Of a stretch of DNA of 64,000 nt, positions 21,831-61,847 are shown piece by piece. Under the pieces are notes generated by a model. That model made no database searches. It was not told where the DNA came from and saw only the letters and a program-made list of their open reading frames with translations. Position 1 is the first letter of the stretch, and the number at the start of each line of letters is the position of its first letter. The stretch is taken from NCBI GenBank assembly GCA_028715175.1, contig JAQUSJ010000001.1, positions 276,550 to 340,549 of the forward strand. The letters run 5' to 3'. The DNA comes from Candidatus Daviesbacteria bacterium. GTDB lineage: Bacteria > Patescibacteriota > Microgenomatia > Daviesbacterales > UBA10151. Both the position numbers and the translations under genes were made by a program.

Positions 21831-21864
21831 ATTTTGTTTGCAAGCTGCGCTTACAAACTTGTTT

Positions 21865-23321: not shown

Positions 23322-23370
23322 GCATAGTTAATATTTGGTTAATATTTCTAAATAAGACAGAAACAAAAAT

Positions 23371-39100: not shown

Positions 39101-39623
39101 GGTTTTTAGACTGAATAAAATACTGGTTTTTAGTTTTGTATGCCTGGTTCTTATTATTGCGCCGATTAACTCACTTGTTACAGCCGGCGGGTATTTGAGT
39201 AAAACACCACATGCTTTTATTTCTTCAAAAGAACTTGCGGGTTTGCAATTTTTAGCTAGTGAGCCTAAGGGAACAGTGTTAACTTATCCTTATGACGGGA
39301 AATTAAAAACTAAAGTTGCGGAACCTTGGCCGATCCTCGTTTATGATAGTACGGCTTATGTTTCAGCTTTTTCTAAAAAAGCGGGCTATTTGGAAGATGA
39401 ACCGCAGAATCAAATCTTGCTGACAGATTATAAAAAGAGACTGGTTGCTTCAAAGGATTTTTTCTTGAAACCTGTTTCCGAAGGATCAAAATTTCTGCGC
39501 GATAATAATATAAAATATATTTACATACCAAAAATATACGACATAAGACTTGATGAGGGCGCCCAAGAGGTAAAAAATATTTTCGAAAATGAAGAAATAA
39601 TTATTTATCAAGTAAATCAATGA
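36135..39623 (+). CDS. Giant bipartite protein: signal peptide + ~490-aa secreted domain of unknown function fused to a ~650-aa GT-C-like polytopic membrane domain with C-terminal extracytoplasmic domain
   Basis: MKKIIFLLLSFFSIIFSAQTVAA signal. No TM helix until ~aa 500, then >14 helices. Loop GLWGPNTHDGVWHIALINQL. Stop overlaps the next start (ATGA). Confidence 0.5.
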   Translation: MKKIIFLLLSFFSIIFSAQTVAASNSFISIVNPVRGNDFWDLKDQSVETAVLGQIEILNKSNLPATWLLRFDVLNNENIINQLKDRTLDEKGLFLEVTQAWTAQAKIQYRKLDIWHAAGSAFLTGYEREQRGKLIDVAFEKFKNIFGQYPVSVGAWWIDAYSLDYMQKKYDITSALIVADQYSTDNYQIWGQYFGTPYYPGKNNALHPAGNLENKLDVVMMQWATRDPVNGYGNGVTESTFSVQANDYIDYHDLDTKYFSSLIDIYTKQKFNQFAHMVVGLENSYSWRKYADEYKKQIEVLIEKRDSNQLSVITMKDFAGWYKKTFPKLSPEQLIVADDPLGSFRKAVWFMNPYYRAGWFLNSDGSVFREIRQYVDGEEELCFRTRCDNVNFATSATRVLDDVSFSSKWVIDEGKISNSKVERKGDDFLISYKNEAGNVRHIEFLPRDISLDGNIFSIDAAILNAIKTGSTVTKNAAAGGQTLDWSLFSVILKLAEFLLFLLLVTFIPGFVLSRNFLKKDSLFLRLFISGSVGFVVLTLLFYITSLLKIRPLVFAYILISLILYVRFKPPFVILRETKDLIIRFFPSQRRPQNDRVGWFNLILIAIILAGTIFQAMPTFKSGLNFSYGIGLWGPNTHDGVWHIALINQLVKSVPPENPVYSGVTLKNYHFFYDLLVAVTNYLSGLPVSDLVFRFYPVIFSLMLGLGSYYLIMKLFKNRMEEMQVKVAAVFSLYFIYFAGSFGWIVEFLREGHFGGESAFWANQAVSFNLNPPFAVSLVILISLFHILFSNTKGIVPNAVAIIMVGTLASFKSYTGILVLGALCFVAAVRILRNKDFTCFWTVLFSILVTALLFLSNFQASSALIIFVPFWFIHSMVDSPDRVGWVRLSLARTTSQALEQWPKFIIAETLSLLLFIFGNLGLRFLSLGYLLKIKEIFKNDTLLFISTTAILSSVIPILFIQSGNPWNTIQFFYPFLYISALFSGPVIAFLVFRLNKILVFSFVCLVLIIAPINSLVTAGGYLSKTPHAFISSKELAGLQFLASEPKGTVLTYPYDGKLKTKVAEPWPILVYDSTAYVSAFSKKAGYLEDEPQNQILLTDYKKRLVASKDFFLKPVSEGSKFLRDNNIKYIYIPKIYDIRLDEGAQEVKNIFENEEIIIYQVNQ

Positions 39624-41248
39624 AACCTAAATTAATATTGTTTTGTCTTGTAATAGTTGGATTACTCTTAAGAGTAATATTCATTAACAATAGCCCGCCC
39701 TCATTATATGGAGACGAGTTAACCATAACTCTGGATGCTTATTCCTTATTAAAAACAGGTCAAGATCAGTTAGGAAACTTACTGCCGCTAACCTTTTCTA
39801 TGGGGGCCGGCCGGCCAGCCGGTTATGTGTATGGGTCAATACCGTTTGTGGCTATCTTTGGTTCGTCTGCGTTAGGTATAAGAGCTCTTTCGATTTTGTC
39901 AGGCATAGGGATAATTATTCTTTTATATTATATAGGTAGGAAACTATTTTCTGGGAAGGTTGGGATAGCAGCTGCTTTTATTGGATCTGTTTCTCCATGG
40001 GATATATCTTTAAGCAGAGGCGGTTTTGAGGCTCATTTTGCATTGTTTCTTGTACTACTGGGAACTTATCTTTTTATTCAAGCAAAGAATACACCCGTAT
40101 TTTATATAATTTCTGCATTGAGTTTTGGGTTAACACTGCATACTTATCCAACATATAAAGTAAGTCTACTGCTATTTTTACCATTACTTCTGTGGTATCA
40201 AGGTGACCTAAAAAGGGTTTTAAACAATTATAGAAAATATTTTTTAACTGGAGTTTGTATATTTATATTCTTCAGTGGTTTATCTTTAATCCAAACTTTT
40301 ACAGGAGGTTCGGAAGCAAGATTTTTAGGTATAAATATATTTGCACAGGATAAATTAAAAGATACAATCGTGCAAAAGATAAACTTCGAAAGACAAATAA
40401 CACAGTTACCTCAGTCTATCTCTAAATATTTTCATAACAAACCTATTGAGTATGCAAAAGTATTCAGTGAAAATTATCTGCAGAATTTTTCAATTGATTT
40501 TCTAATTCTACACGGTGATCGAAACCCAAGACACAATATGGCAACAATGGGGGAGATATATTTTATAGAATTAGTATTAATTTTTATTGGGTTTATTGCT
40601 TCCTGGTACAAAGAAAAAAGGACAAAAATATTTTTGTTTTCCTGGTTATTTCTAGCTCCGATTCCTGCAGCAATTATTGATACTCCGCATGCGCTAAGAA
40701 GTGCTTTTATGTTCCCTCCTCTTGTACTTTTTTCCGCGGTAGGGCTTATAACAGTTTTTAATCACAAAAATAAGTTATTTTCAGTTTTAATTCTAATGAT
40801 TTTTATTTTTCAATTCATATTCTTTGTCCAAAAACTATATTTCCTGGCTCCAAAAGAATACAGCAACTTTTGGTCATATTCTGCAAAACTTGCCTCACAA
40901 ATTGCTAAAAATAATAAAGACAAATTTACTTATGTGATTTTATCTGACAGGATCGATAATATAGAGTTTGCTTATCCGGTTTATGCAAAAATTGATCCCA
41001 ATATAATAATTTCTCAAAATCAAAATAAAACTTTACTCAATGGCAGCAAATTTAAAAAATTTGACAACATTTATATTGGATATATTCCTGAAAGCCGGGT
41101 AGAGAAATTTATTGATTCACTGGAGAGGTCTATGTTGTATATTAGTTCGGCAGGCGATAAGGAATTTCTTAGTAACCCGGAATTAATTGATGGCCTGGAC
41201 GGTCAGAAGGCGCTAGTTTTAGAAAAAAGAGCTTTAAGTAATGAATAA
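39620..41248 (+). CDS. GT-C glycosyltransferase, PMT/ArnT-like subfamily B paralog
   Basis: LYGDELTITLDAYSLLKTGQDQLGNLLPLTF loop after TM1; IRALSILSG..SPWDISLSRGGFEA; mid-protein FLILHGDRNPRHNMATMGEIYF motif. Confidence 0.65.
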   Translation: MKPKLILFCLVIVGLLLRVIFINNSPPSLYGDELTITLDAYSLLKTGQDQLGNLLPLTFSMGAGRPAGYVYGSIPFVAIFGSSALGIRALSILSGIGIIILLYYIGRKLFSGKVGIAAAFIGSVSPWDISLSRGGFEAHFALFLVLLGTYLFIQAKNTPVFYIISALSFGLTLHTYPTYKVSLLLFLPLLLWYQGDLKRVLNNYRKYFLTGVCIFIFFSGLSLIQTFTGGSEARFLGINIFAQDKLKDTIVQKINFERQITQLPQSISKYFHNKPIEYAKVFSENYLQNFSIDFLILHGDRNPRHNMATMGEIYFIELVLIFIGFIASWYKEKRTKIFLFSWLFLAPIPAAIIDTPHALRSAFMFPPLVLFSAVGLITVFNHKNKLFSVLILMIFIFQFIFFVQKLYFLAPKEYSNFWSYSAKLASQIAKNNKDKFTYVILSDRIDNIEFAYPVYAKIDPNIIISQNQNKTLLNGSKFKKFDNIYIGYIPESRVEKFIDSLERSMLYISSAGDKEFLSNPELIDGLDGQKALVLEKRALSNE

Positions 41249-42173
41249 AATAAAATATTTACTGCTTATTTTAATCTCAGTTACTGCTTTATCTTTTAGA
41301 TTTTATATTAATTATTTCATACCCGTCAACCAACAGATTAATTTATTATTTATACTTTTAGGTCTGTTTAATTTAATATTATTATTTTGTATAATTCAAA
41401 GGCTAGCCAATTATAAAATTGGGTTGTTGGCAGCTCTACTATACGCAATATCCCCTTGGACAGCATACCTTGAATTGGTATCCAGTCCATATATCTTTTT
41501 ACTTTCTTCTATATTATTTCTATATCTGGGAATTCAAATATTTAATGTCAGCAAAGGAATTTTCTTGCTATTGATCATTGCGATCGGAGGTTTTTTTCTA
41601 TACAGATATAATCAAATCACTGTTTTTTCCAATATAGGTTTAATCAATGATGTAAATAGTTTTAGAGGTGAAACGAATCAAACTTTTCTCTCTCCTTTAG
41701 GAAAGATTATCGAAAACCGTTATATATATTTAAGCGAGCATTTAACATCTAATATCCTTAAACAATTTACTCCGGCAACTTATTTTACAAATCAGGTTCG
41801 ATTACTGGGGTTTTCTAATTCTTCGCCAATATATTTAGGCTTTATAACTCCTTTCTTATTTGGTGTTTTGATATCGGTAAGATTAATACCAAGGAAGAGA
41901 ATTTCAGAAATAATAGCCGGAGCTTTATTTATATTGCCTTCAATACTATCTAAAGACTCGCCTGATTTATCCCGCTTAATCTTAATTTCTCCAATAATTT
42001 TTTTTGTAATAAGTATAGGTTTATATGAATTTATTCTAAATTACAGGAAAAAAGTATTCCTTTTTTTGCTGTTTCTTACGGTGTTTATGGTGGTATTGCA
42101 GTTTCTGATAACTATCTCCGATATAGCGGTTAGAGAACCTGTAAGATTACAGATGTTTTTGGATCAAAAATAA
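41241..42173 (+). CDS. N-terminally truncated GT-C-like membrane protein (lacks the DE catalytic loop)
   Basis: 310 aa. Goes from TM1 directly into LAALLYAISPWTAYLE (the second-motif region of subfamily B). ATYFTNQVRLLGFSNSSPIYLGFITPFLFG resembles the mid-protein module. Confidence 0.45.
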   Translation: MNKIKYLLLILISVTALSFRFYINYFIPVNQQINLLFILLGLFNLILLFCIIQRLANYKIGLLAALLYAISPWTAYLELVSSPYIFLLSSILFLYLGIQIFNVSKGIFLLLIIAIGGFFLYRYNQITVFSNIGLINDVNSFRGETNQTFLSPLGKIIENRYIYLSEHLTSNILKQFTPATYFTNQVRLLGFSNSSPIYLGFITPFLFGVLISVRLIPRKRISEIIAGALFILPSILSKDSPDLSRLILISPIIFFVISIGLYEFILNYRKKVFLFLLFLTVFMVVLQFLITISDIAVREPVRLQMFLDQK

Positions 42174-42174
42174 T

Positions 42175-43833
42175 ATGAAAAGATTTAATCAGAGAAGAGG
42201 TAAACATATTTTTGTTTTCCTGCTATCTCTTACAATAGTAGGAGGTTTTCTAAGGTTTTATCAGATTACTAAGAATCCAATCAGTCTTTCTATTGACGAA
42301 GTGGCATTCGCGTATAATGCTTTTTCTATTTTGAAAACTGGCCGCGATGAATATGGTAAATTTCTTCCTTTATCTTTTAAATCAACCGGAGATTATAAGA
42401 ATCCGGTTCCTATATACACGATGGTTCCGTCAATTGCCATATTTGGGCTAAACGAATTTAGTATTAGGCTGCCTACAGCGCTGATTGCTACTTTAAGCAT
42501 CCCTGTTTTTTTTCTTTTATTTCTGGAGATTACAGGATCTCAAGTAATATCACTTTCCGCTGTCTTGCTTTTGACAATTTCCCCCTGGCATATTTATTAT
42601 TCACGGTATGTTTCTGATCATTTAATAGCGGCAACACTAGTGGTTTTGGGGGTATTATCTTTTTTAAGAATGCTAAAAACAGGCAGATGGTTTTGGAGTA
42701 TCGGTTCTGCGATTTTCCTTATTTTATCAATGTATACTTATTATGCCGAACGGTTATTTATTCCTCTTTTTTTCTTAGCGCTATTTATACTAAAAAAACG
42801 GGATTTAGTTGAAAGATTAAAACAAGTAAAATTATTTATAGCAGTTTGCGCAGTTTTGCTCTTTCCGCTTATTTTTTCCACTTTTTTTGGACCTGATAGG
42901 ATAAGAGCGCAAATGACATGGATTGGTAATGATGTTGAGTTTGTAAGGAATGTAGCAGTAAAACCTTTGAAAAATATCCCTTTTTTGACTTCAGATAATT
43001 TATTACTTGTTTTTTTTGGAGCGAGAAAATATTTGAATTATTTTGATCCTGGATTCCTTTTCTATAGCGGTTTAAATATGACTAAAAGCGGTAGCTACGG
43101 ACTAGGCGTTTTGTATTTATTTGAAACCCCCTTTTTTATTTTAGGAATTATTACATTGATCAGGAAAAAGATAAAAAACAAAGGCTTAATTATTGCATGG
43201 ATTTTGGTAGGTTTGATACCTGCGTCATTGACAAATAACGAACAGCATCCCGGACGCACCTTTATTATTCTTCCTATGATCATACTGATTTCTGCAATAG
43301 GAGTAGTTGAGCTTTTCAGGTTAATAAGAACTTATTTAAATCAGTATTTAAGGAATATAATTTTTGTAGCTTTTTCAATCATTATTATATGGAATTTAAT
43401 CCAAGCATTTTTAATCTATAGCGTGCATTTCCCCCGTCAAAAAGGAGAAAATTTTATGGAAGGCACTAAGGAAACGGTCGAATTTGCGCTGGTAAATAAG
43501 AATAAGTACAAAGAGATAGTTTTTGATCCGTACAGGGGGATAGAGGCTCCGTACATAGTTAGCATCCCGCATATGTATATTCTATTTTACTCGCAATATA
43601 ACCCCGCAATTTATCAGCAGGAAGAAAAAATACGGCCGGACGGATCATACGGATTTGATAAGTTCACCATCAGGAGAATTGACTGGAGGACAGATAGGTT
43701 AAAAACAGATACTTTATTTATTGGTAGTCCTTGGAGTTTGCCTGAAAAAGATATTAAAAACCAGGAAATTTTAAAGAGGGTCTATCTTTCCGGCGGACAA
43801 TTAGCTTTTTTGATTGTTTCTCCAGTGCAGTAA
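42175..43833 (+). CDS. GT-C glycosyltransferase, PMT/ArnT-like subfamily B paralog
   Basis: SIDEVAFAYNAFSILKTGRDEYGKFLPLSFKSTGDYKNPVPIY; IRLPTALIATL; TISPWHIYYSRYVSDH. 552 aa. Confidence 0.7.
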   Translation: MKRFNQRRGKHIFVFLLSLTIVGGFLRFYQITKNPISLSIDEVAFAYNAFSILKTGRDEYGKFLPLSFKSTGDYKNPVPIYTMVPSIAIFGLNEFSIRLPTALIATLSIPVFFLLFLEITGSQVISLSAVLLLTISPWHIYYSRYVSDHLIAATLVVLGVLSFLRMLKTGRWFWSIGSAIFLILSMYTYYAERLFIPLFFLALFILKKRDLVERLKQVKLFIAVCAVLLFPLIFSTFFGPDRIRAQMTWIGNDVEFVRNVAVKPLKNIPFLTSDNLLLVFFGARKYLNYFDPGFLFYSGLNMTKSGSYGLGVLYLFETPFFILGIITLIRKKIKNKGLIIAWILVGLIPASLTNNEQHPGRTFIILPMIILISAIGVVELFRLIRTYLNQYLRNIIFVAFSIIIIWNLIQAFLIYSVHFPRQKGENFMEGTKETVEFALVNKNKYKEIVFDPYRGIEAPYIVSIPHMYILFYSQYNPAIYQQEEKIRPDGSYGFDKFTIRRIDWRTDRLKTDTLFIGSPWSLPEKDIKNQEILKRVYLSGGQLAFLIVSPVQ

Positions 43834-43874
43834 ACTAATTTTACTTAAACCCGGTAAGCTGGTAAGATTTAAAT

Positions 43875-44783
43875 ATGAAACAGAAGATTTCAGTAATCAT
43901 TAATATTCTAAACGAAGAAAAAAATATCGGGAAAGTGATGAATTCTTTGGATTGGGCAGATGAAATAGTTATTGTAGACGATGGATCACAAGATAAGACA
44001 TATAAAATTCTGACTCGGTTAAAGATTGAAAACACAAAACTGAAGCTCTTTAAACATAAAAGTGTCGGATTTGTAGAACCAGCTAGGAATTTTGCAATAT
44101 CTAAGGCTACAAATGAATGGATATTAATTTTAGATGCAGATGAGCGGATCCCTCAGAGTTTAGCAGAAAAATTAGAAAAAATTGCTTCTAAAATGGAGCA
44201 AATAGATTATGTAAGGTTACCCAGAAAGAATATCATTTTTGGTCACGCTATGCGTCAGTCTCAGTGGTGGCCGGATTATAATATAAGATTTTTCAAAAAA
44301 GGAAAAGTTGAATGGGGTAATAGAATTCATAGACCTCCTCAGGCTCTTGGGCAAGGTTTAGATCTTCCGGCAGACGAGAAATATGCTATTGTTCATCACA
44401 ACTACGAAACTATCGCACAATTTTTACAAAGGATGAACAGATATACGGACATACAGGCAGAAGAATTAAAAAAAGAAGGATATAAATTTGACTGGAAAGA
44501 TCTTTTCGAAAAACCTCTCAACGAATTCTTATCAAGATTTTTTGCAAGAGAGGGTTACAAAGACGGCTTACATGGTTTAGCATTGAGCTTGCTACAAGCC
44601 TTCTCTTTTGTAGTTATGTATCTGAAATTATGGGAAATGGATAAGTTTAGAGAGCAAGATATCAACCTATCGGAGTTAAATAGTCTAAAAAATCAATCAG
44701 CAGAGGCTTTTAATTATTGGATTAACAGATCAAAGTATCCGGGTAATTTCTTTGAACGAGTATTCAAAAAGATTAAGAGTTAA
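43875..44783 (+). CDS. GT2 glycosyltransferase (WaaE/KdtX-like)
   Basis: ISVIINILNEEKNIGKVMNSLDWADEIVIVDDGSQDKT..LILDADE; C-terminal QFLQRMNRYTDIQAEE typical of this GT2 subgroup. Confidence 0.75.
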   Translation: MKQKISVIINILNEEKNIGKVMNSLDWADEIVIVDDGSQDKTYKILTRLKIENTKLKLFKHKSVGFVEPARNFAISKATNEWILILDADERIPQSLAEKLEKIASKMEQIDYVRLPRKNIIFGHAMRQSQWWPDYNIRFFKKGKVEWGNRIHRPPQALGQGLDLPADEKYAIVHHNYETIAQFLQRMNRYTDIQAEELKKEGYKFDWKDLFEKPLNEFLSRFFAREGYKDGLHGLALSLLQAFSFVVMYLKLWEMDKFREQDINLSELNSLKNQSAEAFNYWINRSKYPGNFFERVFKKIKS

Positions 44784-44785
44784 GT

Positions 44786-45589
44786 ATGTTAAGTGTAGCT
44801 ATAATTACAAAAAATGAAGAAAGCAGAATTAAAGCCTGTTTGGAATCTGTCAAATGGGCTGATGAGATTGTTGTTGTGGATAGCGGATCGAAGGACAATA
44901 CCTTAAAGATAGCAAGGGAATACACAGAAAAAATTTTCGAAGTGAATTTGCAAGATTTTTCTTCTCTTCGTAATCTAGCAACAGAAAAAGCTTCAGGGAA
45001 TTGGGTACTCTTTGTAGACTCAGACGAGCGGGTGCTTGAACCTTTGAAAAAAGAAATTGAGACTGTGATAGCTCTCTCGGATTATTCCGCCTATGCGATA
45101 TCCCGTAAAAACATCATTTTTGGCCAAGAGGTTAAGTATGGTCCTTTTTGGCCCGATTGGGTAATAAGGCTTTTTAAAAAGGATAGTTTTGAAGGGTGGA
45201 TTGGTCAAGTTCACGAAACGCTTAAGTTTAAAGGCGATTTAGGTTACAGTAAAAATTCGCTTTTGCATTTAACACATCGCAATACCGATCAAATTATTTT
45301 GAAAAGTTTGGAATGGTCAAAAATTGATGCCAAATTAAGATTTGCTTCGAAACATCCAAAGATGTCCGGGTGGAGATTTTTAAGAATCTTTGTTGCTGAA
45401 ATTTTTAACCAGGGAATTTTGCGAAAAGGTTTTTTCAACGGAACAATAGGAGTAATGGATTCCATCCTACAAGTTTTTAGTTTGTATATCACTTATGTTA
45501 GGTTATGGCAATTGCAGCAACCGGAAGATTTAAATAAAGTTTATGACAATTTAGACAAAAAGTTGATAGAAAATCAATTTCGTTATTGA
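44786..45589 (+). CDS. GT2 glycosyltransferase (WaaE/KdtX-like), tandem paralog
   Basis: LSVAIITKNEESRIKACLESVKWADEIVVVDSGSKDNT..LFVDSDE. Confidence 0.75.
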   Translation: MLSVAIITKNEESRIKACLESVKWADEIVVVDSGSKDNTLKIAREYTEKIFEVNLQDFSSLRNLATEKASGNWVLFVDSDERVLEPLKKEIETVIALSDYSAYAISRKNIIFGQEVKYGPFWPDWVIRLFKKDSFEGWIGQVHETLKFKGDLGYSKNSLLHLTHRNTDQIILKSLEWSKIDAKLRFASKHPKMSGWRFLRIFVAEIFNQGILRKGFFNGTIGVMDSILQVFSLYITYVRLWQLQQPEDLNKVYDNLDKKLIENQFRY

Positions 45590-46663
45590 ATGAAAATTGC
45601 GATTTATTCTCCATATTTAAATACTTTTGGCGGGGGAGAGAAATACATGATGACTATTGCGGAAATCTTCTCTTCCGAAAATACTGTGGATGTGCTTTTG
45701 GATCGCCATCTGGCGGATTCGGGAGGAGATTATTTAAAGAACGAATTGTCAAGAAGATTTAATCTTAATTTAAAATTTACAAATTTTATTTTTGCTCCTG
45801 TTGGTAAAAATTCTTCTTTTGCATACAGAATCTTTTTTTTAAAAAATTATGATGTGCTTTTCTATTTAACCGATGGAAGTATTTTTTTTCCAACCGCTAA
45901 GAAAAACATTTTACATATTCAGTCTCCTCTTATTGGGCAACCTGCAAAAAGCGTTTGGGGTAAGTTGAAGCTTAAGGGTTGGGATTTGATTATATATAAT
46001 TCAAAATTTACGGAAGAACATTCAGAGAAAAATTGGCCGTTAATCTCTCAAGTCATCTATCCGCCGGTTGATGTTGAGAAGATAAAACCTCTTAAAAAGA
46101 GAAAATACATATTGTCAGTCGGTCGCTTTTTTGGATATCTAAAAGATAAAAAACACGAGATTTTGATCAAAACTTTTAGAGAGCTTTTTGAAACCGGAAA
46201 GATTAATGGGTGGAGTTTGCAGTTGGTCGGATCGGCCGGAGAAGGAGATATGGATTATTTGGAGCAGTTGCAAATCTTGGCAGATGGATTACCTGTAAAA
46301 TTTTATCCAAATCTGGATTACGATAAATTAATCAAGCTTTACGGACAGTCAAGTATTTATTGGCATGCAGCCGGATTTGGGGAAACTGATCCTGCGAAAA
46401 TGGAGCATTTCGGAATTTCTGCAGTTGAGGCAATGGCAGCTGGATGTGTACCTGTGGTAATAAATAAAGGCGGATTAAAAGAGACAGTGGCTTATGGCAA
46501 AGACGGATTTCTGTGGGATGATTTAATGCAGCTTAAAGAATTAACAATAAATTTAGTAAACGATGCTCATTTAATACAAAAAATGTCAGAGCAAGCTATA
46601 AAATCGGCCAAAGGATTCGATAAGAATAACTTTGTGCAAAAGATACTTCGATTAACTGCTTAA
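45590..46663 (+). CDS. GT4 (glycosyl transferase group 1) retaining glycosyltransferase
   Basis: C-terminal EHFGISAVEAMAAGCVPVVINKGGLKETV (E-x7-E motif). 357 aa. Start is 1 nt after the previous stop. Confidence 0.75.
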   Translation: MKIAIYSPYLNTFGGGEKYMMTIAEIFSSENTVDVLLDRHLADSGGDYLKNELSRRFNLNLKFTNFIFAPVGKNSSFAYRIFFLKNYDVLFYLTDGSIFFPTAKKNILHIQSPLIGQPAKSVWGKLKLKGWDLIIYNSKFTEEHSEKNWPLISQVIYPPVDVEKIKPLKKRKYILSVGRFFGYLKDKKHEILIKTFRELFETGKINGWSLQLVGSAGEGDMDYLEQLQILADGLPVKFYPNLDYDKLIKLYGQSSIYWHAAGFGETDPAKMEHFGISAVEAMAAGCVPVVINKGGLKETVAYGKDGFLWDDLMQLKELTINLVNDAHLIQKMSEQAIKSAKGFDKNNFVQKILRLTA

Positions 46664-46667
46664 GCCT

Positions 46668-47384
46668 ATGGGAAAACTCAATATACGAAGTATTCTTGCT
46701 CAAAATAAAGCTTTATTAGTTGTTATACTGATAGTCTTCACAACTCCCTGGACCTGGAAAATTTTAAATGACAATCTTCTCTTGTGTTTATCACTAATCA
46801 TAATTACTGTTATTTTTGTTAAACTATTGTTGAATAATAAGCGGAATACCAGATTAATCTTATTGTTTTGTTCTATCTTTGTGGTAGTTTCTGCAGTGAA
46901 TGTGCAACTGGGTTTCGATCGGAATCTCCGTAAACTTAATGTTAATGAAGAGGTCCAGTTGAACGAGAGGCACAATTATTTCGCCAAAGAATTAAGAGAA
47001 TTCTTTTTGAATAAGTACTCATTAAATTATTATAAAAATTACAATCTTTCTTTCTATAAATTTCAACGGAATTTTTTTTCTGCGTTAGATCCTAATTTAT
47101 ATTTTTTTGCCGGCCATCCAAGAGAAAGAGCCGGAATAAATGAATTTGAAAAATTTCAATCATTGTATCTGATATTCTTTATTATTGGTATAGTCTATAG
47201 TTTGCAACTGCAATCATTACTGGCGATCGCGTATTTACTGGTTGCTGCTTTGATTAATGGATTCATCGCGCCAACATATCGACTTGGACCGATTTTGTTT
47301 TTCCCTTTTGTAACTGCACTAACAGCACTAGGTATCATGTATTCTGTAGCTCTTTTGAAGTCTTTGATTAGGAAAATACACTAA
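46668..47384 (+). CDS. Mini membrane protein homologous to the internal 'NPR-loop + TM' module of the subfamily B GT-C enzymes
   Basis: 238 aa: N-terminal 2 TM, then LDPNLYFFAGHPRERAGINEF (compare large-protein FLFISGDQNPRNSVKTQGEFY), then 3 TM. Paralog at 49019/49112-49690. Confidence 0.5.
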   Translation: MGKLNIRSILAQNKALLVVILIVFTTPWTWKILNDNLLLCLSLIIITVIFVKLLLNNKRNTRLILLFCSIFVVVSAVNVQLGFDRNLRKLNVNEEVQLNERHNYFAKELREFFLNKYSLNYYKNYNLSFYKFQRNFFSALDPNLYFFAGHPRERAGINEFEKFQSLYLIFFIIGIVYSLQLQSLLAIAYLLVAALINGFIAPTYRLGPILFFPFVTALTALGIMYSVALLKSLIRKIH

Positions 47385-47385
47385 A

Positions 47386-49020: not shown

Positions 49021-49111
49021 TATAAATAGATTCATACTTATCCATATTTTAGTAATATTATTTAATCCCTGGTGGTGGATAATTATTCAGAAAAATCTTT
49101 GGATTGGTTTA

Positions 49112-49690
49112 TTGGTTTTTGTTCTAAGTCTTGTAGTATTTATATATTTTTGGCAAATTAAATCCAGAAAACTATTGTTATCATTGCTGGTATTGACTGC
49201 GGTTTTATCTTTTATTGCTGTAAAGGGAGCCTTCGACGAAAATCTCTTTCGAAGCTCAGCTTTAGATATACAACAGTATAACAAAAGACATGAATTTTAT
49301 GCCAAGGATCTAGGTAAAATATACACAAATAAATTCTCTTTAACTTACTTTAAAGAATATAATTTTCCTCTTATAAAATTACAACGTAATCTTTTTGCCA
49401 ATTTAGATCCTAATCTATATTTTTTTGCCAGTCATCCGAGAGAGCGGGCGGGCGTTGAAGAGTTTAATAAATACTCACCAATCTTTTTACCATTTTTCTT
49501 AATTGGAGTCTTCTACTCTATATATATTTTATTGCCAAATTTTCTGATTTATGCAATATCTGTTTTGTTATTAAGTTCAATCATCTCTTCTAAATACAAC
49601 CTTGGACCTATACTATTTTTCCCGCTTATTAATTACTTAATTACAGTTGGACTTATTTTATCTTTTAAAAATATTAAGAAGATGATATGA
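49112..49690 (+). CDS. Second mini membrane protein (paralog of 46668-47384); called with a TTG start, but homology continues in frame upstream to 49019 with no canonical start codon
   Basis: LDPNLYFFASHPRERAGVEEF motif. Upstream in-frame translation ..ILVILFNPWWWIIIQKNL.. aligns with VVILIVFTTPWTWKILNDNL of the first copy, but no ATG/GTG/TTG lies between 49019 and 49112. Confidence 0.45.
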   Translation: MVFVLSLVVFIYFWQIKSRKLLLSLLVLTAVLSFIAVKGAFDENLFRSSALDIQQYNKRHEFYAKDLGKIYTNKFSLTYFKEYNFPLIKLQRNLFANLDPNLYFFASHPRERAGVEEFNKYSPIFLPFFLIGVFYSIYILLPNFLIYAISVLLLSSIISSKYNLGPILFFPLINYLITVGLILSFKNIKKMI

Positions 49691-52964: not shown

Positions 52965-54607
52965 TCTCAAAACAATCTTTATTACTACTCTCCATAATTC
53001 TGATTGGAGGCGTGTTTAGATTTTATAGACTGACAGATTTTCCGGTGCAGCTAAACCACGACGAGATTAGTCAATTGTATGATGCTATCTCTATAGCAGA
53101 AACAGGTAAAGATGTATATGGCAATTTTATGCCGACTATATTCCCTTCGGTAAATGATTTTAAGTCGCCGTTTTACACATATATAACAAGTCTTTTTTAT
53201 TTGTTTTTAGGGAATAAGGAAGTGATTATCAAATTACCGGGTGTAATTTTCGGATGGTTGACTATAATAGCTGTTTATTTTTTTGTCTTGAAGTTATTTA
53301 AAAATTGGAGGATTGCCATATGCGCATCGTTTTTTACTGCTATTTCTCCTTTTGAAATATTTTTTTCTCGAAAAAGCTTTGAAAATGTTGCCGGGATCTT
53401 TTTTATGCTTTTTGGTTTTGCAAGTTTATTAGCTTATATCGATAAGAAATCTAATACCAGGATGCTTTACATAGGGTTTTTGTTTCTGGCAATTGCAACT
53501 TATACTTATTTTTCTCATGCAATTTTAATACCGTTTCTCCTTTTTTCCTTCGTACTGATATACAGAGAACATTTTTTAAATAATGTCAAACGAGTATTGT
53601 TACCTGTACTGGTATTGGGGGTTTTGCTAGTTCCCTTGGTGTTGATAATTATTACTAATCCGGGTGCCCGGTATAGGTCTAAAACTGTTTTTATAACCCA
53701 GGATGTTAATTTGGAGAGAAATATAGAGTATTCAAAGTCGGAAAATTATTTAACTTCATTTCTACTAAAGAATAAAGCGATATTAGACTTTAGTTTTAAC
53801 AGGTATTTGGAGCAATTTAATGTAGATTTTATTTTTGCAAATGGTTTAGATTTTACTGGCGAGAGATTATTAAACCAAGGACTATTATTACTAATTCAAT
53901 TACCTCTCTTCGTTTTAGGGCTAATTTATTTAATCAGGCTGAATGGTTTTAAACAGGCTAAAATGTTTATTTTAGCCTGGATTTTATTAGGGATGCTACC
54001 AAGCGGTTTGACTTTTGAATCGCATAGTCCGCATAGAAGTATTATGGTTTTTACAATGTTGAATATTATTTGCGCGGTAGGATTTTATTGGTTTATTCAA
54101 ATAACTAAGAAATCCAAACGGTTTTTTTATCCCCTGATTTGTTTATTTGCATTAGCTTTAATTTTTAATTTTATGTATTTTATACATATGTATTTTGTTA
54201 ATTTTCCTTTTGAAAGATCCCAGCATATACAATATCCTTTTAAACAGGTTGCCTTGTATGCCTGGAGTCAGTATCAAAATTTTGACAGCATTATTTTTGA
54301 TCCGCAGTTTGGCGATTTTGAGCCGAAAATAGGAGCAGGAGCGTATTACTATTTTGCCTACTATGGCCAGATGCCGCCTGATAAATTTCAGAAAGAATAC
54401 CGGTTAGGGGATAAGCCAAGAGAGGTGCTCTTTGATAAGTTTTCCATAAGAGAAGTTTATTGGCTGACTGATAAGGATTTAAAAAATACATTAGTTATTG
54501 CAAGTCCTTGGAGTGTTCGCGAAAAAGACATAGAAGATAAAAATAAGATAATAAAAAGATTCTTTTTTTATAATGGCAAGCTAGCTTTCTATGCAATAAA
54601 ATTATAA
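52952..54607 (+). CDS. GT-C glycosyltransferase, PMT/ArnT-like subfamily B paralog
   Basis: LNHDEISQLYDAISIAETGKDVYGNFMPTIF; IKLPGVIFGWL; ISPFEIFFSRKSFEN; FIFANGLDFTGERLLNQG. Confidence 0.7.
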   Translation: MRKIISKQSLLLLSIILIGGVFRFYRLTDFPVQLNHDEISQLYDAISIAETGKDVYGNFMPTIFPSVNDFKSPFYTYITSLFYLFLGNKEVIIKLPGVIFGWLTIIAVYFFVLKLFKNWRIAICASFFTAISPFEIFFSRKSFENVAGIFFMLFGFASLLAYIDKKSNTRMLYIGFLFLAIATYTYFSHAILIPFLLFSFVLIYREHFLNNVKRVLLPVLVLGVLLVPLVLIIITNPGARYRSKTVFITQDVNLERNIEYSKSENYLTSFLLKNKAILDFSFNRYLEQFNVDFIFANGLDFTGERLLNQGLLLLIQLPLFVLGLIYLIRLNGFKQAKMFILAWILLGMLPSGLTFESHSPHRSIMVFTMLNIICAVGFYWFIQITKKSKRFFYPLICLFALALIFNFMYFIHMYFVNFPFERSQHIQYPFKQVALYAWSQYQNFDSIIFDPQFGDFEPKIGAGAYYYFAYYGQMPPDKFQKEYRLGDKPREVLFDKFSIREVYWLTDKDLKNTLVIASPWSVREKDIEDKNKIIKRFFFYNGKLAFYAIKL

Positions 54608-54617
54608 ACTGTGAAAT

Positions 54618-55388
54618 ATGGGAACAGGTAAAGTTGCAAAGGTTGTAATAGTAATGCCTGCATATAATGCGGCAAAGACAATTAAGAGTACTTATGAAGA
54701 GATCCCTCAAGAATTCAGGAAGAATATTATCCTGGTGGACGATAGAAGCCATGATAACACTGTTGAAATTGCGCGAAATCTAGGCATTAGGGTGTTTTCC
54801 CATACACATAATTTAGGATACGGAGGCAATCAAAAAACTTGTTATTATGAGGCTTTAAAAGATGATCCAAGCGTTGTTGTGATGCTGCATCCTGATTATC
54901 AGTATGATGCTAAATTAATTGGAGAATTAATTAGGCCGATTCAAGATGGCCGTTATGATTTTATGTTTGGTTCAAGGATTCAGAGCCGGCAATCGGCTCT
55001 GTCAGGAGGTATGCCTAAAATCAAATATTCTATAAACAGAATAGTTTGCATCTTGGAAAATATTTTACTTGATGTTAATTTTACCGAGCATTTTTCCGGT
55101 TTTCGGGCATATTCTGTTAAACTTCTTAAAACAGTTCCTTTTCAAAAATTTTCTAATGATTTTGTTTTCGATCAACAGATGACAATTTCAGCTTTAAGCT
55201 ACGGGTTTAAGATCGGAGAGATACCTATCCCTACAAGATATCACGAAAAGGCTTCCTCCATACAATTTCTTAAAGGCGCTAAGTTTATTTTGGATACATT
55301 TTGGTGGATAATGATTTATAGGTTTCACAAATTAGGTTTAATAAAAAGTGCAATTGTTAATATAAAACCGACTATAGATAAAAGCTGA
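54618..55388 (+). CDS. GT2 glycosyltransferase (Dpm1/GtrB-like)
   Basis: VVIVMPAYNAAKTIKSTYEEIPQEF..ILVDDRSHDNT..HPDYQYD. 3' end overlaps the convergent gene by 64 nt. Confidence 0.7.
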   Translation: MGTGKVAKVVIVMPAYNAAKTIKSTYEEIPQEFRKNIILVDDRSHDNTVEIARNLGIRVFSHTHNLGYGGNQKTCYYEALKDDPSVVVMLHPDYQYDAKLIGELIRPIQDGRYDFMFGSRIQSRQSALSGGMPKIKYSINRIVCILENILLDVNFTEHFSGFRAYSVKLLKTVPFQKFSNDFVFDQQMTISALSYGFKIGEIPIPTRYHEKASSIQFLKGAKFILDTFWWIMIYRFHKLGLIKSAIVNIKPTIDKS

Positions 55389-57007: not shown

Positions 57008-57024
57008 AAATTGCTAACATTAAT

Positions 57025-58689
57025 TTGGTAGTATCAATGAGATATAAAATATATACAGCACTCTTTCTAATTGTAACTTTATCATTTTTTTTACGATTCT
57101 GTAAGGTTACGGAAGATCCTCCAGCTTTGAATTGGGATGAAGTTTCTATAGGATATAATGCTTATTCTATTTTGAAAACAGGAAAGGATGAGTGGAACCA
57201 GCCGTTCCCAATACATTTTAAAGCCTACGGTGAATATAAACTACCGGTACAAATTTATGCGAGTATCCCGGGAATATATATTTTTGGACTTAATGAGTTG
57301 GGAGTAAGGATTACCCCGGTAGTGTATGGGACGTTAACCGTATTGTGTATGTTTTTTTTAGGCAGAGTGCTTTTTGAAAACGAATTGGCTGGTTTAGCTT
57401 CGGCATTTTTACTTGGGATCTCTCCTTGGCATATTCATTTAACAAGAGCATCTTTTGAATCGTCGTTGGCGACATTTTTTGTCACTGCCGGAATTTGGTT
57501 TTTAGTGAAAGGATTTAAAGATCAGAAATGGTTTATCATTTCTGTGATACCATTTGCTTTGTCAGTCTTTACTTACAATTCCGCCAGAATTTTTACCCCA
57601 CTATTTTTAATTGCCATACTATTTCTCTATAGAAAAAGCTTAATTAAATTTAGAAAAGTAGCGATTATTTCTGTGGTATTTTTTACTATTCTTTTGTTGC
57701 CGCTTATTCCGTATTTATTTAGCGGTGAGCGGAGCGCCCGCTACAAGTTGGTTAGTATTACAGATGATCCGGGACTTATTCCGCGGATTAATGAAAATCG
57801 GGGCAATTCGAAATTACCCCAACCCTTGCCGAGATTTGTTCATAATAAAGTTACATATATTGCATTTTATTTCACCAGGAATTATCTTTCTCACTTCACT
57901 CCGCAATTCTTATTTATATCCGGCGCTCCCCATAAACAACACCATGTTCAGAATATGGGAGAACTTTACTATTTCCAAGCCCCGTTTCTCTTTTTGGGCC
58001 TTTATGCTCTTTTCCGTTTAAAAAATCCCTTTAAGGGATTTCTATTCGCTTGGATACTACTGGCATTTATTCCTGTGGCAACAACAGGAGATAGTATTCC
58101 GCATGCTTTGAGGACATTAATTGCAGCCCCTTTTTATCAGCTAGTTTCCGGGTTAGGTTTTGTTTTTAGTTTAAGATGGTTTAAAAAGTTTTCTAAAGTT
58201 TGGAAAATTATCTCCATTGCAGTATTCGTAACAGTAATAATAACTGGTTTGGGTTATTACCTGTATCAATATTACAAGGTTTATCCTGTTGCGTATTCCA
58301 GAGATTGGCAGTATGGATATGAACAGGTAGTAGATTATATTGGCAAGCATAAGGATGAATACGATGAAATTATTTTTACCAGGCATTATGGGGAACCGCA
58401 TATGTTTACCCTGTTTTATCTTAAGTTTGATCCGGTAAAATACCAAAATGATCCAAATTTAGTTAGATTTGAAACATATGATTGGGTAAGGGTTTTAAAG
58501 TTTAGTAATTTTTACTTTCCGGATTTAGGAGATAAAGGGACGCAGTTTACAGATATCGTAAAAGCAAATCCCGGGAAGAAACTGTTATTTATTGGCAGGG
58601 GAGAAGATTTTCCTAAAGAAATTCCCAGGCTTTTATCTGTTAAATTCTTAAATGGTGAAAATGATTTTGATATTGTGGAAGTAAGATGA
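57025..58689 (+). CDS. GT-C glycosyltransferase, PMT/ArnT-like subfamily B paralog (start more likely at MRYKIY, 57037)
   Basis: LNWDEVSIGYNAYSILKTGKDEWNQPFPIHFKAYGEYKLPVQIY; VRITPVVYG; ISPWHIHLTRASFES; HFTPQFLFISGAPHKQHHVQNMGELYYF. Confidence 0.7.
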   Translation: MVVSMRYKIYTALFLIVTLSFFLRFCKVTEDPPALNWDEVSIGYNAYSILKTGKDEWNQPFPIHFKAYGEYKLPVQIYASIPGIYIFGLNELGVRITPVVYGTLTVLCMFFLGRVLFENELAGLASAFLLGISPWHIHLTRASFESSLATFFVTAGIWFLVKGFKDQKWFIISVIPFALSVFTYNSARIFTPLFLIAILFLYRKSLIKFRKVAIISVVFFTILLLPLIPYLFSGERSARYKLVSITDDPGLIPRINENRGNSKLPQPLPRFVHNKVTYIAFYFTRNYLSHFTPQFLFISGAPHKQHHVQNMGELYYFQAPFLFLGLYALFRLKNPFKGFLFAWILLAFIPVATTGDSIPHALRTLIAAPFYQLVSGLGFVFSLRWFKKFSKVWKIISIAVFVTVIITGLGYYLYQYYKVYPVAYSRDWQYGYEQVVDYIGKHKDEYDEIIFTRHYGEPHMFTLFYLKFDPVKYQNDPNLVRFETYDWVRVLKFSNFYFPDLGDKGTQFTDIVKANPGKKLLFIGRGEDFPKEIPRLLSVKFLNGENDFDIVEVR

Positions 58690-60212
58690 AATTTTCAAGC
58701 ATTAATTTATTCCTGGCTTTAATTGTGTTTCTCTTTCTATTTACCAGATTCTTTAAACTTTCTGAAATTCCTCCCTCTGTTTATTGGGATGAAGCTTCAA
58801 TTGGTTATAACGCTTATTCAATAGCCGAAACCGGTAAAGACGAATGGGGTGAATTTCTTCCCATTCATTTTAGAGCTTTTGGAGAATTTAAGTTACCTGT
58901 TTATATTTATGTTACCGCAGCAAGCGTTAAAGTTTTTGGATTAAATGAGTTTTCGGTAAGGTTGCCGGCAGTATTATTTTCTTTGGGGACAGTTTTTTTA
59001 ATCTTTTTTCTGGCAAGGAAATTGTCGGATAATGCAACAGTAGGTTTATTAAGTAGCTTTTTTATGACTGTTTCGCCCTGGTTTTTTATTTTCTCAAGAA
59101 CAGGCTATGAAGCGACGGCAGGGTTGATGTTTTATGTATTGGCAATATATTTATTTCTACAAAATAATAGAAACCTCTGGTACATCTTTTTTTCTATCTT
59201 GAGTTTTATCTTATGTGCGTATAGTTATAATAGTTTTAGGATAGTGGTTCCTCTTACAATTTTGATATTAGTTGCGCACAGTTTAAGGAACCCTATTGAT
59301 ACTTTTAAAAAAGGTATTTTACCCTTAGCGCTTTCCGTAATTTTCTTAGCTCTAAGCGCAGTCCCGATTTACAGATTGTATGTATATGATGCGGGTGTTT
59401 CCCGTCTTCAAGCAGTTAGCACAACAAGTTCAACTTTTATCCAAAATTATCTCTCACATTTTAATCCAAACTTTTTATTTTTGCGGGGAGATAAAAATTT
59501 AAGAAGTCAACAAACAGGTTTCGGGCAACTTTATTTTCCTGATTTGCTGCTTTTAACATTGGGAGTTTGGTATATAACTGTCAGTAAGTCAAAATACAAA
59601 ATTTTACTCTTTGCATTGTTGCTGTTAGGATTTATCCCGGCTGCCATTACAAAAGAGGCTCCGCACGCCTTGCGAACCATTTCTGTGGTTCCATTTCTTT
59701 CCATCATCTCTGCGCTTGGAGTAGTTCAATTTTGGCAATGGGTTAAAAATAGAAAACTTTTCAATTTGATAGTTGTAATAATTTTCCTTATCTTTTTTAG
59801 TAACTATTTCTTTAGTTTTTTAAATACCTATCCCGTGGAGTCGTCAAAAGACTGGCAATACGGTTATAAAAAGATATTTACAGATTATAAAAATAATTTT
59901 GATAAATATGATCAGGTGATAATTTCCGATGAATATGCTCAGCCGTATATTTTTGCTCTGTTTTATCTAAAAATTGATTCCAACAAATTTAGGCAGAGTG
60001 TAGTTAGAAATAACGTTGACCAATGGGGATTCTCTACTGTATCAAGTTTTGATAAATTTGAGTTTGGCAAGATAGATAAATTATTAAACAAAGACTCAAA
60101 AAATACTTTAATCTTTGCTTCCGCTAAAGAGCTGCTTCCTGATTTGAACCCCTCAGAGATTATTAATTTTCTGGATGGAGAAATTGCTTTCCGGATGTAT
60201 AAGTTAAAATAA
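58686..60212 (+). CDS. GT-C glycosyltransferase, PMT/ArnT-like subfamily B paralog
   Basis: VYWDEASIGYNAYSIAETGKDEWGEFLPIHFRAFGEFKLPVYIY; VRLPAVLFSLG; VSPWFFIFSRTGYEA; HFNPNFLFLRGDKNLRSQQTGFGQLYFP. Confidence 0.7.
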   Translation: MKFSSINLFLALIVFLFLFTRFFKLSEIPPSVYWDEASIGYNAYSIAETGKDEWGEFLPIHFRAFGEFKLPVYIYVTAASVKVFGLNEFSVRLPAVLFSLGTVFLIFFLARKLSDNATVGLLSSFFMTVSPWFFIFSRTGYEATAGLMFYVLAIYLFLQNNRNLWYIFFSILSFILCAYSYNSFRIVVPLTILILVAHSLRNPIDTFKKGILPLALSVIFLALSAVPIYRLYVYDAGVSRLQAVSTTSSTFIQNYLSHFNPNFLFLRGDKNLRSQQTGFGQLYFPDLLLLTLGVWYITVSKSKYKILLFALLLLGFIPAAITKEAPHALRTISVVPFLSIISALGVVQFWQWVKNRKLFNLIVVIIFLIFFSNYFFSFLNTYPVESSKDWQYGYKKIFTDYKNNFDKYDQVIISDEYAQPYIFALFYLKIDSNKFRQSVVRNNVDQWGFSTVSSFDKFEFGKIDKLLNKDSKNTLIFASAKELLPDLNPSEIINFLDGEIAFRMYKLK

Positions 60213-60215
60213 AAA

Positions 60216-61847
60216 ATGAAGAAAGAAATTAAGATATTATTGTTTTTAATTATTTTATTGGCCACTTTTTTGAGAGTTTATAGGCTGGATCAAGTTCCAC
60301 CATCTTTAAACTGGGATGAAGTAGATGCAGGTTATAATGCATACACTATCGCTAATTGGGGTAGGGATGAATGGGGAAAATTTCTCCCTTTGGTTTTTAC
60401 TTCATTTAGAGACGATAAGCGCCCTATTCATATTTATCTAACAGCACCGGTAGTTAAGTTATTCGGGTTATCTGATTTTACAACCAGACTGCCTGGAGCG
60501 ACCGTAGGCGTTTTAAGCGTAATAGTAATTTTTTACCTTGCGCTAATTTTATTTAAAAGTGATCTTATTGCTTTGCTATCAGCATTATTTTTGGCAATTT
60601 CCCCTTATCATTTACAATTTTCAAGAGGCTTATGGGAGATAAACTTTGCTCTTTTTTTCTTTATGCTGGGGTTGTTACTGTTTTATCTGGCGCTGCAAAA
60701 AAAAGGTTGGTTTATTAGTCTGTCATTTTTTAGTTTCGGATTAAGTATTTTATCTTATCATTCATCAATAATTGTTGTACCTCCCGTAGTTTTCGTGCTT
60801 GTAGTACTTTATATTAAAAAATTACTTAAACTCTCTTTTAATTTCTATTTGGGTTTAAGCTTAATGATTATTCTTGCAATTTTTATAATTTATGACCCAA
60901 GGATTTTGGGGATGGCACGTGTGCAACAAACCCAATTTGGCAAAGATATAATTGAGAAAACTCAGATTTTCCAAAGGACTAAAAATCATATGCTTGGTTT
61001 AGGAGAGATTACTCTTAATCAATATTTTTCGCATTTTACCCCCCAATATCTTTTTATCTCCGGTGATCAAAATCCAAGAAATTCTGTTAAAACACAAGGA
61101 GAATTTTATAAAATTGATGCATTATTTATTTTTGTAGGATTGGTTTGTTTATTATTATTAAGATCAAAAATTTCTGCGGTTGTATTTACATGGTTGTTGC
61201 TTTCTCCTATACCATCCAGTCTGGTTAGTCATGCTCCTAATGCAACCAGGGCGTTATTCATGATGGGCAGTTTAAATCTTATTGCGGCATTTGGTGCAGG
61301 GAATATAATCAACCGGTTTAAAGGTAGCTCTAAAGTTGCTATTTTAGTAGCAATATTAATTTTACTTGGTATTCAATTTTATTCTTATTCTGATTATTAT
61401 TATAATTCTTATCCAAAAAAAGATGCCATTGAATGGCAGTACGGCATGAAACAATCAGCAGAGTTTGTAAAATCTCATCCGGAATACACTCAGGTGTATG
61501 TTACAGACATCCGTTCACAACCGTATATATTTTATCTTTTTTACTTAAAAACTCCTTTACCTGAATATTTAAATGCCGTAGTCTATAATAGATTAGAAGA
61601 AAGTAAAAGTTATAATACAGTTTCGTATTTTGAGAACTTTTATCTTACAGAAGAAGGTCAACGAAAAAGGATTAATTTTTACTTTGGAGGATGGGACAGC
61701 GTGGAAAGCGTCCCGGATAGAAATGTGTTATATGTGCTGAGTCCCAGCCAATATGATGGATTAAGACGTCGTTCATCGTTTGATGTTAAGAAGATAATTT
61801 ACTATCCTGATGGAGGAGTCGCATTTTATCTGGTAAGTGGTATATGA
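60216..61847 (+). CDS. GT-C glycosyltransferase, PMT/ArnT-like subfamily B paralog
   Basis: LNWDEVDAGYNAYTIANWGRDEWGKFLPLVF; TRLPGATVGVL; ISPYHLQFSRGLWE; HFTPQYLFISGDQNPRNSVKTQGEFYKI. Confidence 0.7.
   Translation: MKKEIKILLFLIILLATFLRVYRLDQVPPSLNWDEVDAGYNAYTIANWGRDEWGKFLPLVFTSFRDDKRPIHIYLTAPVVKLFGLSDFTTRLPGATVGVLSVIVIFYLALILFKSDLIALLSALFLAISPYHLQFSRGLWEINFALFFFMLGLLLFYLALQKKGWFISLSFFSFGLSILSYHSSIIVVPPVVFVLVVLYIKKLLKLSFNFYLGLSLMIILAIFIIYDPRILGMARVQQTQFGKDIIEKTQIFQRTKNHMLGLGEITLNQYFSHFTPQYLFISGDQNPRNSVKTQGEFYKIDALFIFVGLVCLLLLRSKISAVVFTWLLLSPIPSSLVSHAPNATRALFMMGSLNLIAAFGAGNIINRFKGSSKVAILVAILILLGIQFYSYSDYYYNSYPKKDAIEWQYGMKQSAEFVKSHPEYTQVYVTDIRSQPYIFYLFYLKTPLPEYLNAVVYNRLEESKSYNTVSYFENFYLTEEGQRKRINFYFGGWDSVESVPDRNVLYVLSPSQYDGLRRRSSFDVKKIIYYPDGGVAFYLVSGI

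Follow-up and report, generated by a model that had tools for sequence, protein, structure and literature searches.

The stretch of DNA analysed here, called the window throughout (64 kb in its whole length, with a G+C content of 30-41%), comes from a tiny-genome groundwater bacterium, Candidatus Daviesbacteria, of the Microgenomates in the candidate phyla radiation (CPR), and carries a row of nine genes for PMT-like membrane proteins of the glycosyltransferase type C (GT-C). These copies, labelled n1 to n9 in order of start coordinate (Table 1), had been listed from the letters alone in an earlier note; the nine open reading frames (ORFs) are present at the listed starts, all on the + strand, and encode proteins of 508-555 aa. 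The spacing is operon-like, most genes of the array overlapping or sitting no more than 13 nt apart, and the start of n1 overlaps the stop of the 1162-aa gene upstream. The n9 product is 100% identical to an NCBI protein titled 'glycosyltransferase family 39 protein' from Candidatus Daviesbacteria, encoded on a 743,708-bp contig. Here, I argue that the nine genes form one old subfamily and that they probably encode active GT-C-fold membrane glycosyltransferases of the PMT_2 (GT39/GT83-like) type.

All nine proteins exceed the gathering score of Pfam PMT_2 (PF13231; 26.8-50 bits against 26.1, E 7e-6 to 5e-13), and n2, n7, n8 and n9 also pass Pfam PMT (PF02366; 27.6-32.2 bits against 22.7), which n1, n3, n4, n5 and n6 fail. 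Their alignment spans the full length, with invariant positions that include D32, E33, D49, P56, Y71, G81 and P126 (n1 numbering). In an all-versus-all BLASTP of the GT-C-like proteins of the window they make up one subfamily (58-471 bits), apart from the other GT-C genes and divided into the sub-clusters n3/n4 (46% identity), n2/n6 (n6 being the nearest paralog of n2, at 212-253 bits) and n7/n8/n9/n1; n5 is the outlier, 19-24% identical to the other eight copies and merely 41-52% to its own orthologs. The three motifs on which the earlier note had built the family are positionally homologous in the full-length alignment, and the nine are true paralogs. In the first motif the D-E pair, the second D and the P are invariant and the remainder is consensus; the second is equally real (P invariant, R or K in 9/9), but its spacing is S-P-W-x4-S-R and not x3; the third, FLF-x-GD-x-NPR, marks a homologous column but is strict in n1, n8 and n9 only and degenerate in the other six. 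As to the number of genes, nine is correct for the subfamily but understates the set, the window holding 19-21 GT-C-type genes in total.

The fold was predicted for n9, as the earlier note had proposed: an AlphaFold2 model built on a 32-sequence alignment (pLDDT 91.4, pTM 0.90) has the multi-spanning architecture of GT-C enzymes, and its top 36 Foldseek matches in the PDB are all GT-C enzymes (AglB, STT3, ArnT, PglB, Pmt4, ALG9/12 and Emb). By sequence, ArnT is the single significant relative among solved structures (E 5e-8, over transmembrane helices (TM) 2 to 7). The array shows the motifs described for the GT-C/PMT clan (PMC7801869): two adjacent acidic residues in outer loop 1, another acidic one in loop 2, and basic residues ahead of TM2 and, as Arg, ahead of TM10. 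In n9 numbering, D34, E35, D51, P58, Y74 and G84 are kept in 9/9, as are R/K91, R/K137 and E/D141 if a conservative swap is allowed; R345, equated with the published lipid-phosphate-binding Arg by its position in the predicted topology and not by superposition, is kept in 8/9, n5 having Ile in the aligned column. Over 156 orthologs and paralogs each catalytic-type residue stands at 91-98% (D34-E35 at 95-97%, R345 at 92%).

Because these residues are retained, and because the ratio of nonsynonymous to synonymous substitution rates (dN/dS) is about 0.1 wherever dS is unsaturated, the nine copies are read as functional. It is very unlikely that the row consists mostly of decaying or non-catalytic copies, pseudoenzymes or scaffolds, around one or two active enzymes. 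Such decay would fit the truncated paralog x41241, which has no DE loop, the loss in n5 of the aligned R345 and of several near-invariant residues, and the n6 ortholog of one other species (locus L018), which is broken into two ORFs (226 + 284 aa, upstream of n7) either as a pseudogene or through an assembly frameshift. Yet 9/9 copies are full length with the DE pair, D51, R/K137 and E/D141, many species retain orthologs, whose dN lies well under dS, and x41241 and the small s-proteins described below are themselves conserved across species.

The loci around orthologs (designated by L numbers) were taken from about 30 other genomes, with the n7 protein as query. Paralogs are 19-46% identical to one another, versus 40-82% for positional orthologs in about 20 other Daviesbacteria species, and in its closest relative each window paralog has a positional ortholog at 52-82% identity, except for n3 (46%). 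In a neighbour-joining tree of 156 sequences, n1, n2, n5, n6 and n9 are each monophyletic across species and n3 and n4 share a clade; n7 and n8 form no clean clades, although about 20 species hold their positional orthologs. Orthologs being far closer than paralogs, the radiation predates the divergence of these Daviesbacteria species; the tandem duplication read from the window thus produced true paralogs, but not recent ones. The sole younger duplication is plausibly that of n3 and n4, along with their small partner genes. The best conserved copy is n7 (58-78% identity at 20 compared loci, 82% in L024); orthologs of n1 reach 41-65% (L012-L014, L016, L017 and L023), of n6 48-65% and of n8, by position, 39-66%, and the n4 ortholog in L011 stands at 77%. 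Many of these loci (L006, L008-L010, L013-L016, L019, L021 and others) have clear Daviesbacteria-type synteny yet are titled 'uncultured Gammaproteobacteria bacterium', and one 'Candidatus Sulfotelmatobacter'; such titles probably reflect placeholder or mistaken taxon names in the deposited bins.

The C-terminal domains are the least conserved part of the paralogs, in agreement with the earlier note: mean identity is 20% there, against 39% in TM1 and loop 1 and 24-26% in the TM core. Profile comparison by hhalign shows that they descend from one ancestral domain, the profiles of n2, n6, n7, n8 and n9 matching mutually at 97-99.8% (save the n6-n9 pair, 34%), those of n3/n4 more weakly at 86-92%, that of n1 marginally at 50-71% and that of n5 undetectably (at most 3%). 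No Pfam match to these domains was found, nor any PDB counterpart in whole-protein searches. The further expectation of a conserved core with fast-evolving C-terminal domains was not borne out among orthologs, in which this domain is at least as conserved as the TM part in n6 (65 vs 51%), n7 (72 vs 68%) and n9 (64 vs 54%) and less conserved in n1 only. Since dN/dS is meaningless between paralogs at 19-46% amino-acid identity, it was computed on orthologs, where it is about 0.1 in both the C-domain and the TM part where computable, dS being mostly saturated (above 1 or not computable). Conservation within ortholog lines together with low dN/dS therefore points to old specialisation under purifying selection and not to fast evolution; diversification after duplication, as the earlier note had it, fits the C-domain differences between paralogs.

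The comparison of copy number and synteny revealed variation between species inside a conserved frame. The order kept is (n1 - x41241 - n2) - GT2 - GT2 - GT4 - cassette - n7 - n8 - n9 - GT2 - GT4. The upstream frame genes (43875..46663) have orthologs at 51-72% identity in 14-17 species, without exception upstream of the variable cassette, and the downstream GT2 and GT4 follow n9 in all 20 compared loci, bar the GT4 in L009; past the window end the cluster goes on with a 387-aa protein, a Wzx-like flippase and a GT2. Between the upstream GT4 and n7, the cassette of 14 other species measures 0.8-7.8 kb with one to seven detected ORFs, in about 11 combinations of s-protein plus n3/n4, n5, n6, GT2_54618, a reverse-strand PTPS-type gene and a tenth paralog type that is absent from the window; the window cassette, with 10.4 kb and eight genes, is the largest seen. 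A second kind of variation concerns alleles. Over 21 genomes n7 and the GT2 and GT4 downstream vary in step in their pairwise identities (r 0.88-0.94), whereas n8 and n9 do not follow the flanks (r 0.35-0.51; n8 alone 0.42-0.51), and n9 falls into two deep classes, 46-56% identical across classes, without a matching split in n7. The window n7, for instance, is 78% identical to both L005 and L006, but its n9 is 78% and 54% identical, respectively; likewise, in the stretch at about 8.4-14.8 kb of each, L022 and L023, which come from two Microgenomates genomes, are 89% identical in n7, 42% in n8 and 55% in n9, with nucleotide similarity lost over n8 and upstream of the gene preceding n7. In the same pair, the genes upstream bear no relation to one another, and L022 carries an insertion of two additional genes after n9.

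I read the locus as a conserved frame with variable slots, like surface-polysaccharide loci. Changes in the GT-C content of the cassette, along with the divergent n8 and n9 alleles, imply that the surface glycan probably differs among lineages. A more distant Patescibacteria genome (Patescibacteria group bacterium SMAG_U6361, L027) has a whole locus of 21.6 kb with 11 GT-C-type ORFs, and dense arrays of the family are therefore not limited to Daviesbacteria.

The earlier note had also offered the array as a reservoir for surface-glycan variation. Between lineages there is variation, in the variable cassette and the n8/n9 alleles; a reservoir within one cell finds no support. An intragenomic reservoir for phase or antigenic variation, with copies switched or recombined within one strain, is extremely improbable. 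There are indeed many similar tandem genes, and gene content differs among relatives; however, the region has no homopolymers of at least 9 A/T or at least 7 G/C, no simple-sequence repeats above 4 units and no invertible segments, nor does it hold convincing inverted repeats or cassettes of near-identical sequence. DNA similarity between paralogs peaks at 81-84% over 44-70 nt, insufficient for gene conversion; every copy is intact in an operon-like array, with catalytic-type residues kept, and most have stable orthologs across species.

Two families of truncated GT-C derivatives accompany the array, x41241 and the s-proteins. The former has neither TM1 and loop 1 (with the DE motif) nor the C-domain and matches GT-C residues 89-383 (hhalign 99.2%); in L016 and L017 it is flanked by n1 and n2, and in L019 and L022 it adjoins n2, at 31-37% identity. 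Its retention beside n2 in these four species suggests a non-catalytic companion as more probable than a fresh pseudogene. The s-proteins s46668 and s49112 (138-142 bits to each other) precede n3 and n4, a pairing that recurs in eight other loci (L001, L003, L005, L011, L015, L018, L021 and L022). Their profile matches GT-C residues 260-383, that is, the end of loop 4 and TM8-TM10 (hhalign 97%, E 3e-11), and they share an invariant DPNLYFF..HPRER loop of which n3 and n4 bear a divergent version. The family comprises 511 clusters at 50% identity, nearly all stand-alone and unannotated, one member (P0170) being a GT2-s fusion; s-proteins may act as a subunit in a split GT-C or else partner a GT2 enzyme in the membrane.

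The wider battery of the window includes four candidate lipid-phosphate-sugar synthases (GT2) and flippase modules, and its 19 firm GT-C genes occupy 30.6 kb, which is 48% of the window and some 4% of the 744-kb contig. The 1162-aa (36135) and 389-aa (25591) proteins are weak GT-C candidates, with 46% and 17% in hhalign. The 1162-aa protein has an outer N-terminal domain of about 480 aa and many TM helices, without Pfam or NCBIfam match; its relatives adjoin n1 orthologs in L012, L014 and L023. The GT2s at 54618, 28980 and 24362 and the GT2 half of 26812 have general similarity to ArnC, PgfS, AglJ and PpgS; GT2_54618 (orthologs at 69-78% identity) resembles the PpgS, AglJ and dolichyl-phosphate hexose transferase models over nearly its full length, under their cut-offs. 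The 26812 and 24362 fusions would physically join the steps of donor synthesis, flipping and transfer.

K55325 is the sole reverse-strand gene in the array. It matches the genes at 31291 and 32945 with 166-174 bits (BLASTP) and has the same position and orientation in L011, L015 and L019; 17 nt separate its listed start from that listed for n7 (a TTG), and internal Met codons probably serve as the true start of one gene or both. A scan for sigma-70 promoters and terminators was uninformative, with promoter-like sites fewer than in shuffles and terminator-like sites falling inside genes.

Table 1. Features of the 64-kb window
Feature	Coordinates	Strand	Description
GT-C-type	1664-3214		Pfam/NCBIfam
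GT-C-type	5590-7227	-	hhalign 94.8%
GT-C-type	9039-10562		Pfam/NCBIfam
GT-C-type	10564-12087		Pfam/NCBIfam
Ser/Thr/Pro-rich protein	12521-13780	-	419 aa, predicted secreted, C-terminal membrane anchor; no Pfam match
rmlABCD and gmd	19738-24387		Pfam/NCBIfam
GT2 + GtrA fusion	24362-25594		GtrA_DPMS_TM domain 66 bits
Weak GT-C candidate	25591-26760	-	389 aa; hhalign 17%
GT2 + GT-C fusion	26812-28983		ArnC/AglJ-like GT2 joined to PMT_2 GT-C
GT2	28980-29720		candidate lipid-phosphate-sugar synthase
GT-C-type	29755-31278		Pfam/NCBIfam
GT-C-type	31291-32952		hhalign 87%
GT-C-type	32945-34654		Pfam/NCBIfam
Wzx-like gene	34621-36135		Polysacc_synt_3, 170 bits
Weak GT-C candidate	36135-39623		1162 aa; hhalign 46% to GT-C loop 1-TM5
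n1	39620..41248	+	GT-C (PMT_2-type) glycosyltransferase, 542 aa; PMT_2 38.4 bits; DE motif
x41241	41241..42173	+	truncated GT-C paralog, 310 aa; PMT_2 27.7 bits
n2	42175..43833	+	GT-C (PMT_2/PMT), 552 aa
Frame GT2	43875-44783	+	Pfam Glycos_transf_2
Frame GT2	44786-45589	+	Pfam Glycos_transf_2
Frame GT4/GT1	45590-46663	+	Pfam Glycos_transf_1
s46668	46668..47384	+	small membrane protein, 238 aa; partner of n3
n3	47386..49020	+	GT-C (PMT_2), 544 aa; 46% identity with n4
s49112	49112..49690	+	second small partner protein, 192 aa; overlaps n4 start
n4	49687..51354	+	GT-C (PMT_2), 555 aa
n5	51351..52964	+	GT-C, 537 aa; PMT_2 28.1 bits; most divergent of the nine
n6	52952..54607	+	GT-C (PMT_2), 551 aa
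GT2_54618	54618..55388	+	256 aa; candidate polyprenyl-phosphate-sugar synthase; Glycos_transf_2 75.7 bits
K55325	55325..57007	-	GT-C-clan membrane protein, PTPS_related type; PF10131 E 4e-5, below gathering score
n7	57025..58689	+	GT-C (PMT_2 and PMT), 554 aa; best conserved in the array
n8	58686..60212	+	GT-C (PMT_2 and PMT), 508 aa; variable-allele slot
n9	60216..61847	+	GT-C (PMT_2 and PMT), 543 aa; slot with two deep allele classes; copy modelled
Downstream frame GT2	61844-62614	+	Pfam
Downstream frame GT4	62598-63674	+	Pfam

Taken together with the 10-12 further GT-C-type genes, the array likely represents a greatly expanded transmembrane glycosylation system of the multi-component kind, by which an envelope glycopolymer is built or decorated. 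Systems of this kind combine three parts, namely a GT-A enzyme making C55-P-sugar, a flippase of the GtrA or Wzx type and a GT-C enzyme that transfers the sugar on the outer face, and several known members carry a PMT_2 domain and act on teichoic acids (PMC8035078); a polymer-decorating system is favoured because the parts list of the window matches them, PMT_2-type GT-Cs included. In the proposed scheme the cytoplasmic GT2s (54618, 28980, the GT2 half of 26812 and the GT2-GtrA protein 24362) would load single sugars onto polyprenyl phosphate, and a GtrA-type or Wzx-type module would flip the lipid-linked sugar to the outer side of the membrane. Each GT-C paralog would then move the sugar to a cell-surface acceptor by means of the loop-1 Asp-Glu and the Arg before TM10, while the choice of acceptor or linkage would fall to its own conserved outer domain at the C-terminus and to loop 4. 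Family, fold, retained residues, gene context and selection are observed here; donor, acceptor and topology are inferred.

Several points weigh against this picture. None of the GT2s comes near the equivalog cut-offs of the named polyprenyl-phosphate synthases that it matches; the predicted topology (N-terminus inside, 11 TM helices, C-terminal domain outside) derives from the AlphaFold2 helices and the positive-inside rule; the discordance of n8 and n9 could partly reflect episodic rate change instead of allele exchange; and the comparison genomes are metagenome bins, some with unreliable names.

An alternative that I regard as rather unlikely is that the nine are protein O-glycosyltransferases (PMT/GT39-like, or like the TfpW-type pilin glycosylases), each paralog acting on Ser/Thr residues in secreted proteins of its own, for example S-layer proteins, pilins or surface proteins rich in Ser and Thr. 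Along this line, 4/9 copies pass the PF02366 threshold, the PMT-typical DE motif is invariant, the GT2s resemble, below cut-off, PgfS of the streptococcal protein-glycosylation system, and a predicted secreted protein with a membrane anchor and long linkers rich in Ser, Thr and Pro is encoded in the window (12521-13780), a candidate O-glycosylation acceptor. However, the DE motif is common to ArnT-type enzymes and hence does not discriminate, the significant sequence match in the PDB is limited to ArnT and includes no PMT, and the context is of the polysaccharide type, with rml genes, Wzx and many GT2 and GT4. Pfam scans of the nine full-length proteins found no MIR domain either, which eukaryotic PMTs carry in loop 5; bacterial PMTs are not known to have one, so that its absence excludes the eukaryotic type only. 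Moreover, those Gram-positive PMT_2-type GT-Cs for which the acceptors are known work on teichoic acids (PMC8035078), in line with the glycopolymer reading favoured here.

The density of GT-C genes and their variation among lineages point to glycan assembly outside the membrane as a major, diversifying investment, plausibly linked to attachment, host range or phage evasion, and suggest that a complex, variable sugar coat matters to these poorly known bacteria. CPR/Patescibacteria combine minimal genomes with envelopes about which there is almost no experimental knowledge. Concrete targets are n7, the conserved core enzyme, the variable slots of n8 and n9, and the large, unannotated family of small membrane proteins that accompanies one GT-C subtype. 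A bolder reading, which I consider unlikely, takes the locus for a cassette-variable 'glycan code' in which swaps of alleles and cassettes would set host or phage specificity in these presumed episymbionts, some of the GT-Cs forming heteromers with hitherto undescribed split GT-C modules, the s-proteins and x41241. Such a locus would be built from GT-C enzymes, unlike O-antigen and capsule loci, which use cytoplasmic glycosyltransferases.

Among known systems, the window most resembles Listeria GtlA/GtcA/GtlB and GttA/GttB and Lactococcus CsdAB/CD/EF with CflA, in which a GT2 synthase, a flippase and a multi-spanning GT-C with an acidic motif in an outer loop act together (PMC8035078). Those have one to three GT-A/GT-C pairs; here, nine enzymes of one subfamily and about ten others are packed into 64 kb, with truncated GT-C companions and a cassette-like gene content that shifts between species. 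With ArnT (GT83; PDB 5EZM/5F15) the nine share about 13-15% identity, and they have 11 predicted TM helices versus the 13 of ArnT. Their C-domain was unmatched by fold search, and no NCBIfam ArnT model matched. A scan of the neighbouring genes turned up no arnA/B/D-like gene, the context being rml, gmd, GT2, GT4 and Wzx. CPR bacteria are not known to have lipopolysaccharide, so a lipid A acceptor is unlikely. Unlike GT39 PMTs (yeast Pmt1/2/4 and actinobacterial Pmt), the nine have no MIR domain and no significant match to solved PMTs, and five copies fail the PMT model. Mycobacteria, too, possess a battery (EmbA-C, AftA-D, PimE and Mpt) that assembles arabinogalactan and lipoarabinomannan outside the membrane; it belongs to other GT-C families, is dispersed in a genome about six times larger and is not made of tandem paralogs of one subfamily. 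A literature search returned nothing relevant on GT-C, GT39 or ArnT-type glycosylation in CPR, Patescibacteria or Daviesbacteria, which is no proof of novelty. To sum up, there is nothing unusual about the nine enzymes as such, which belong to a known superfamily and already bear the GT39 label in public annotation; what goes beyond the described systems is the density of the battery on a 0.74-Mb contig, the variation by frame plus cassette, and the split-module companions.

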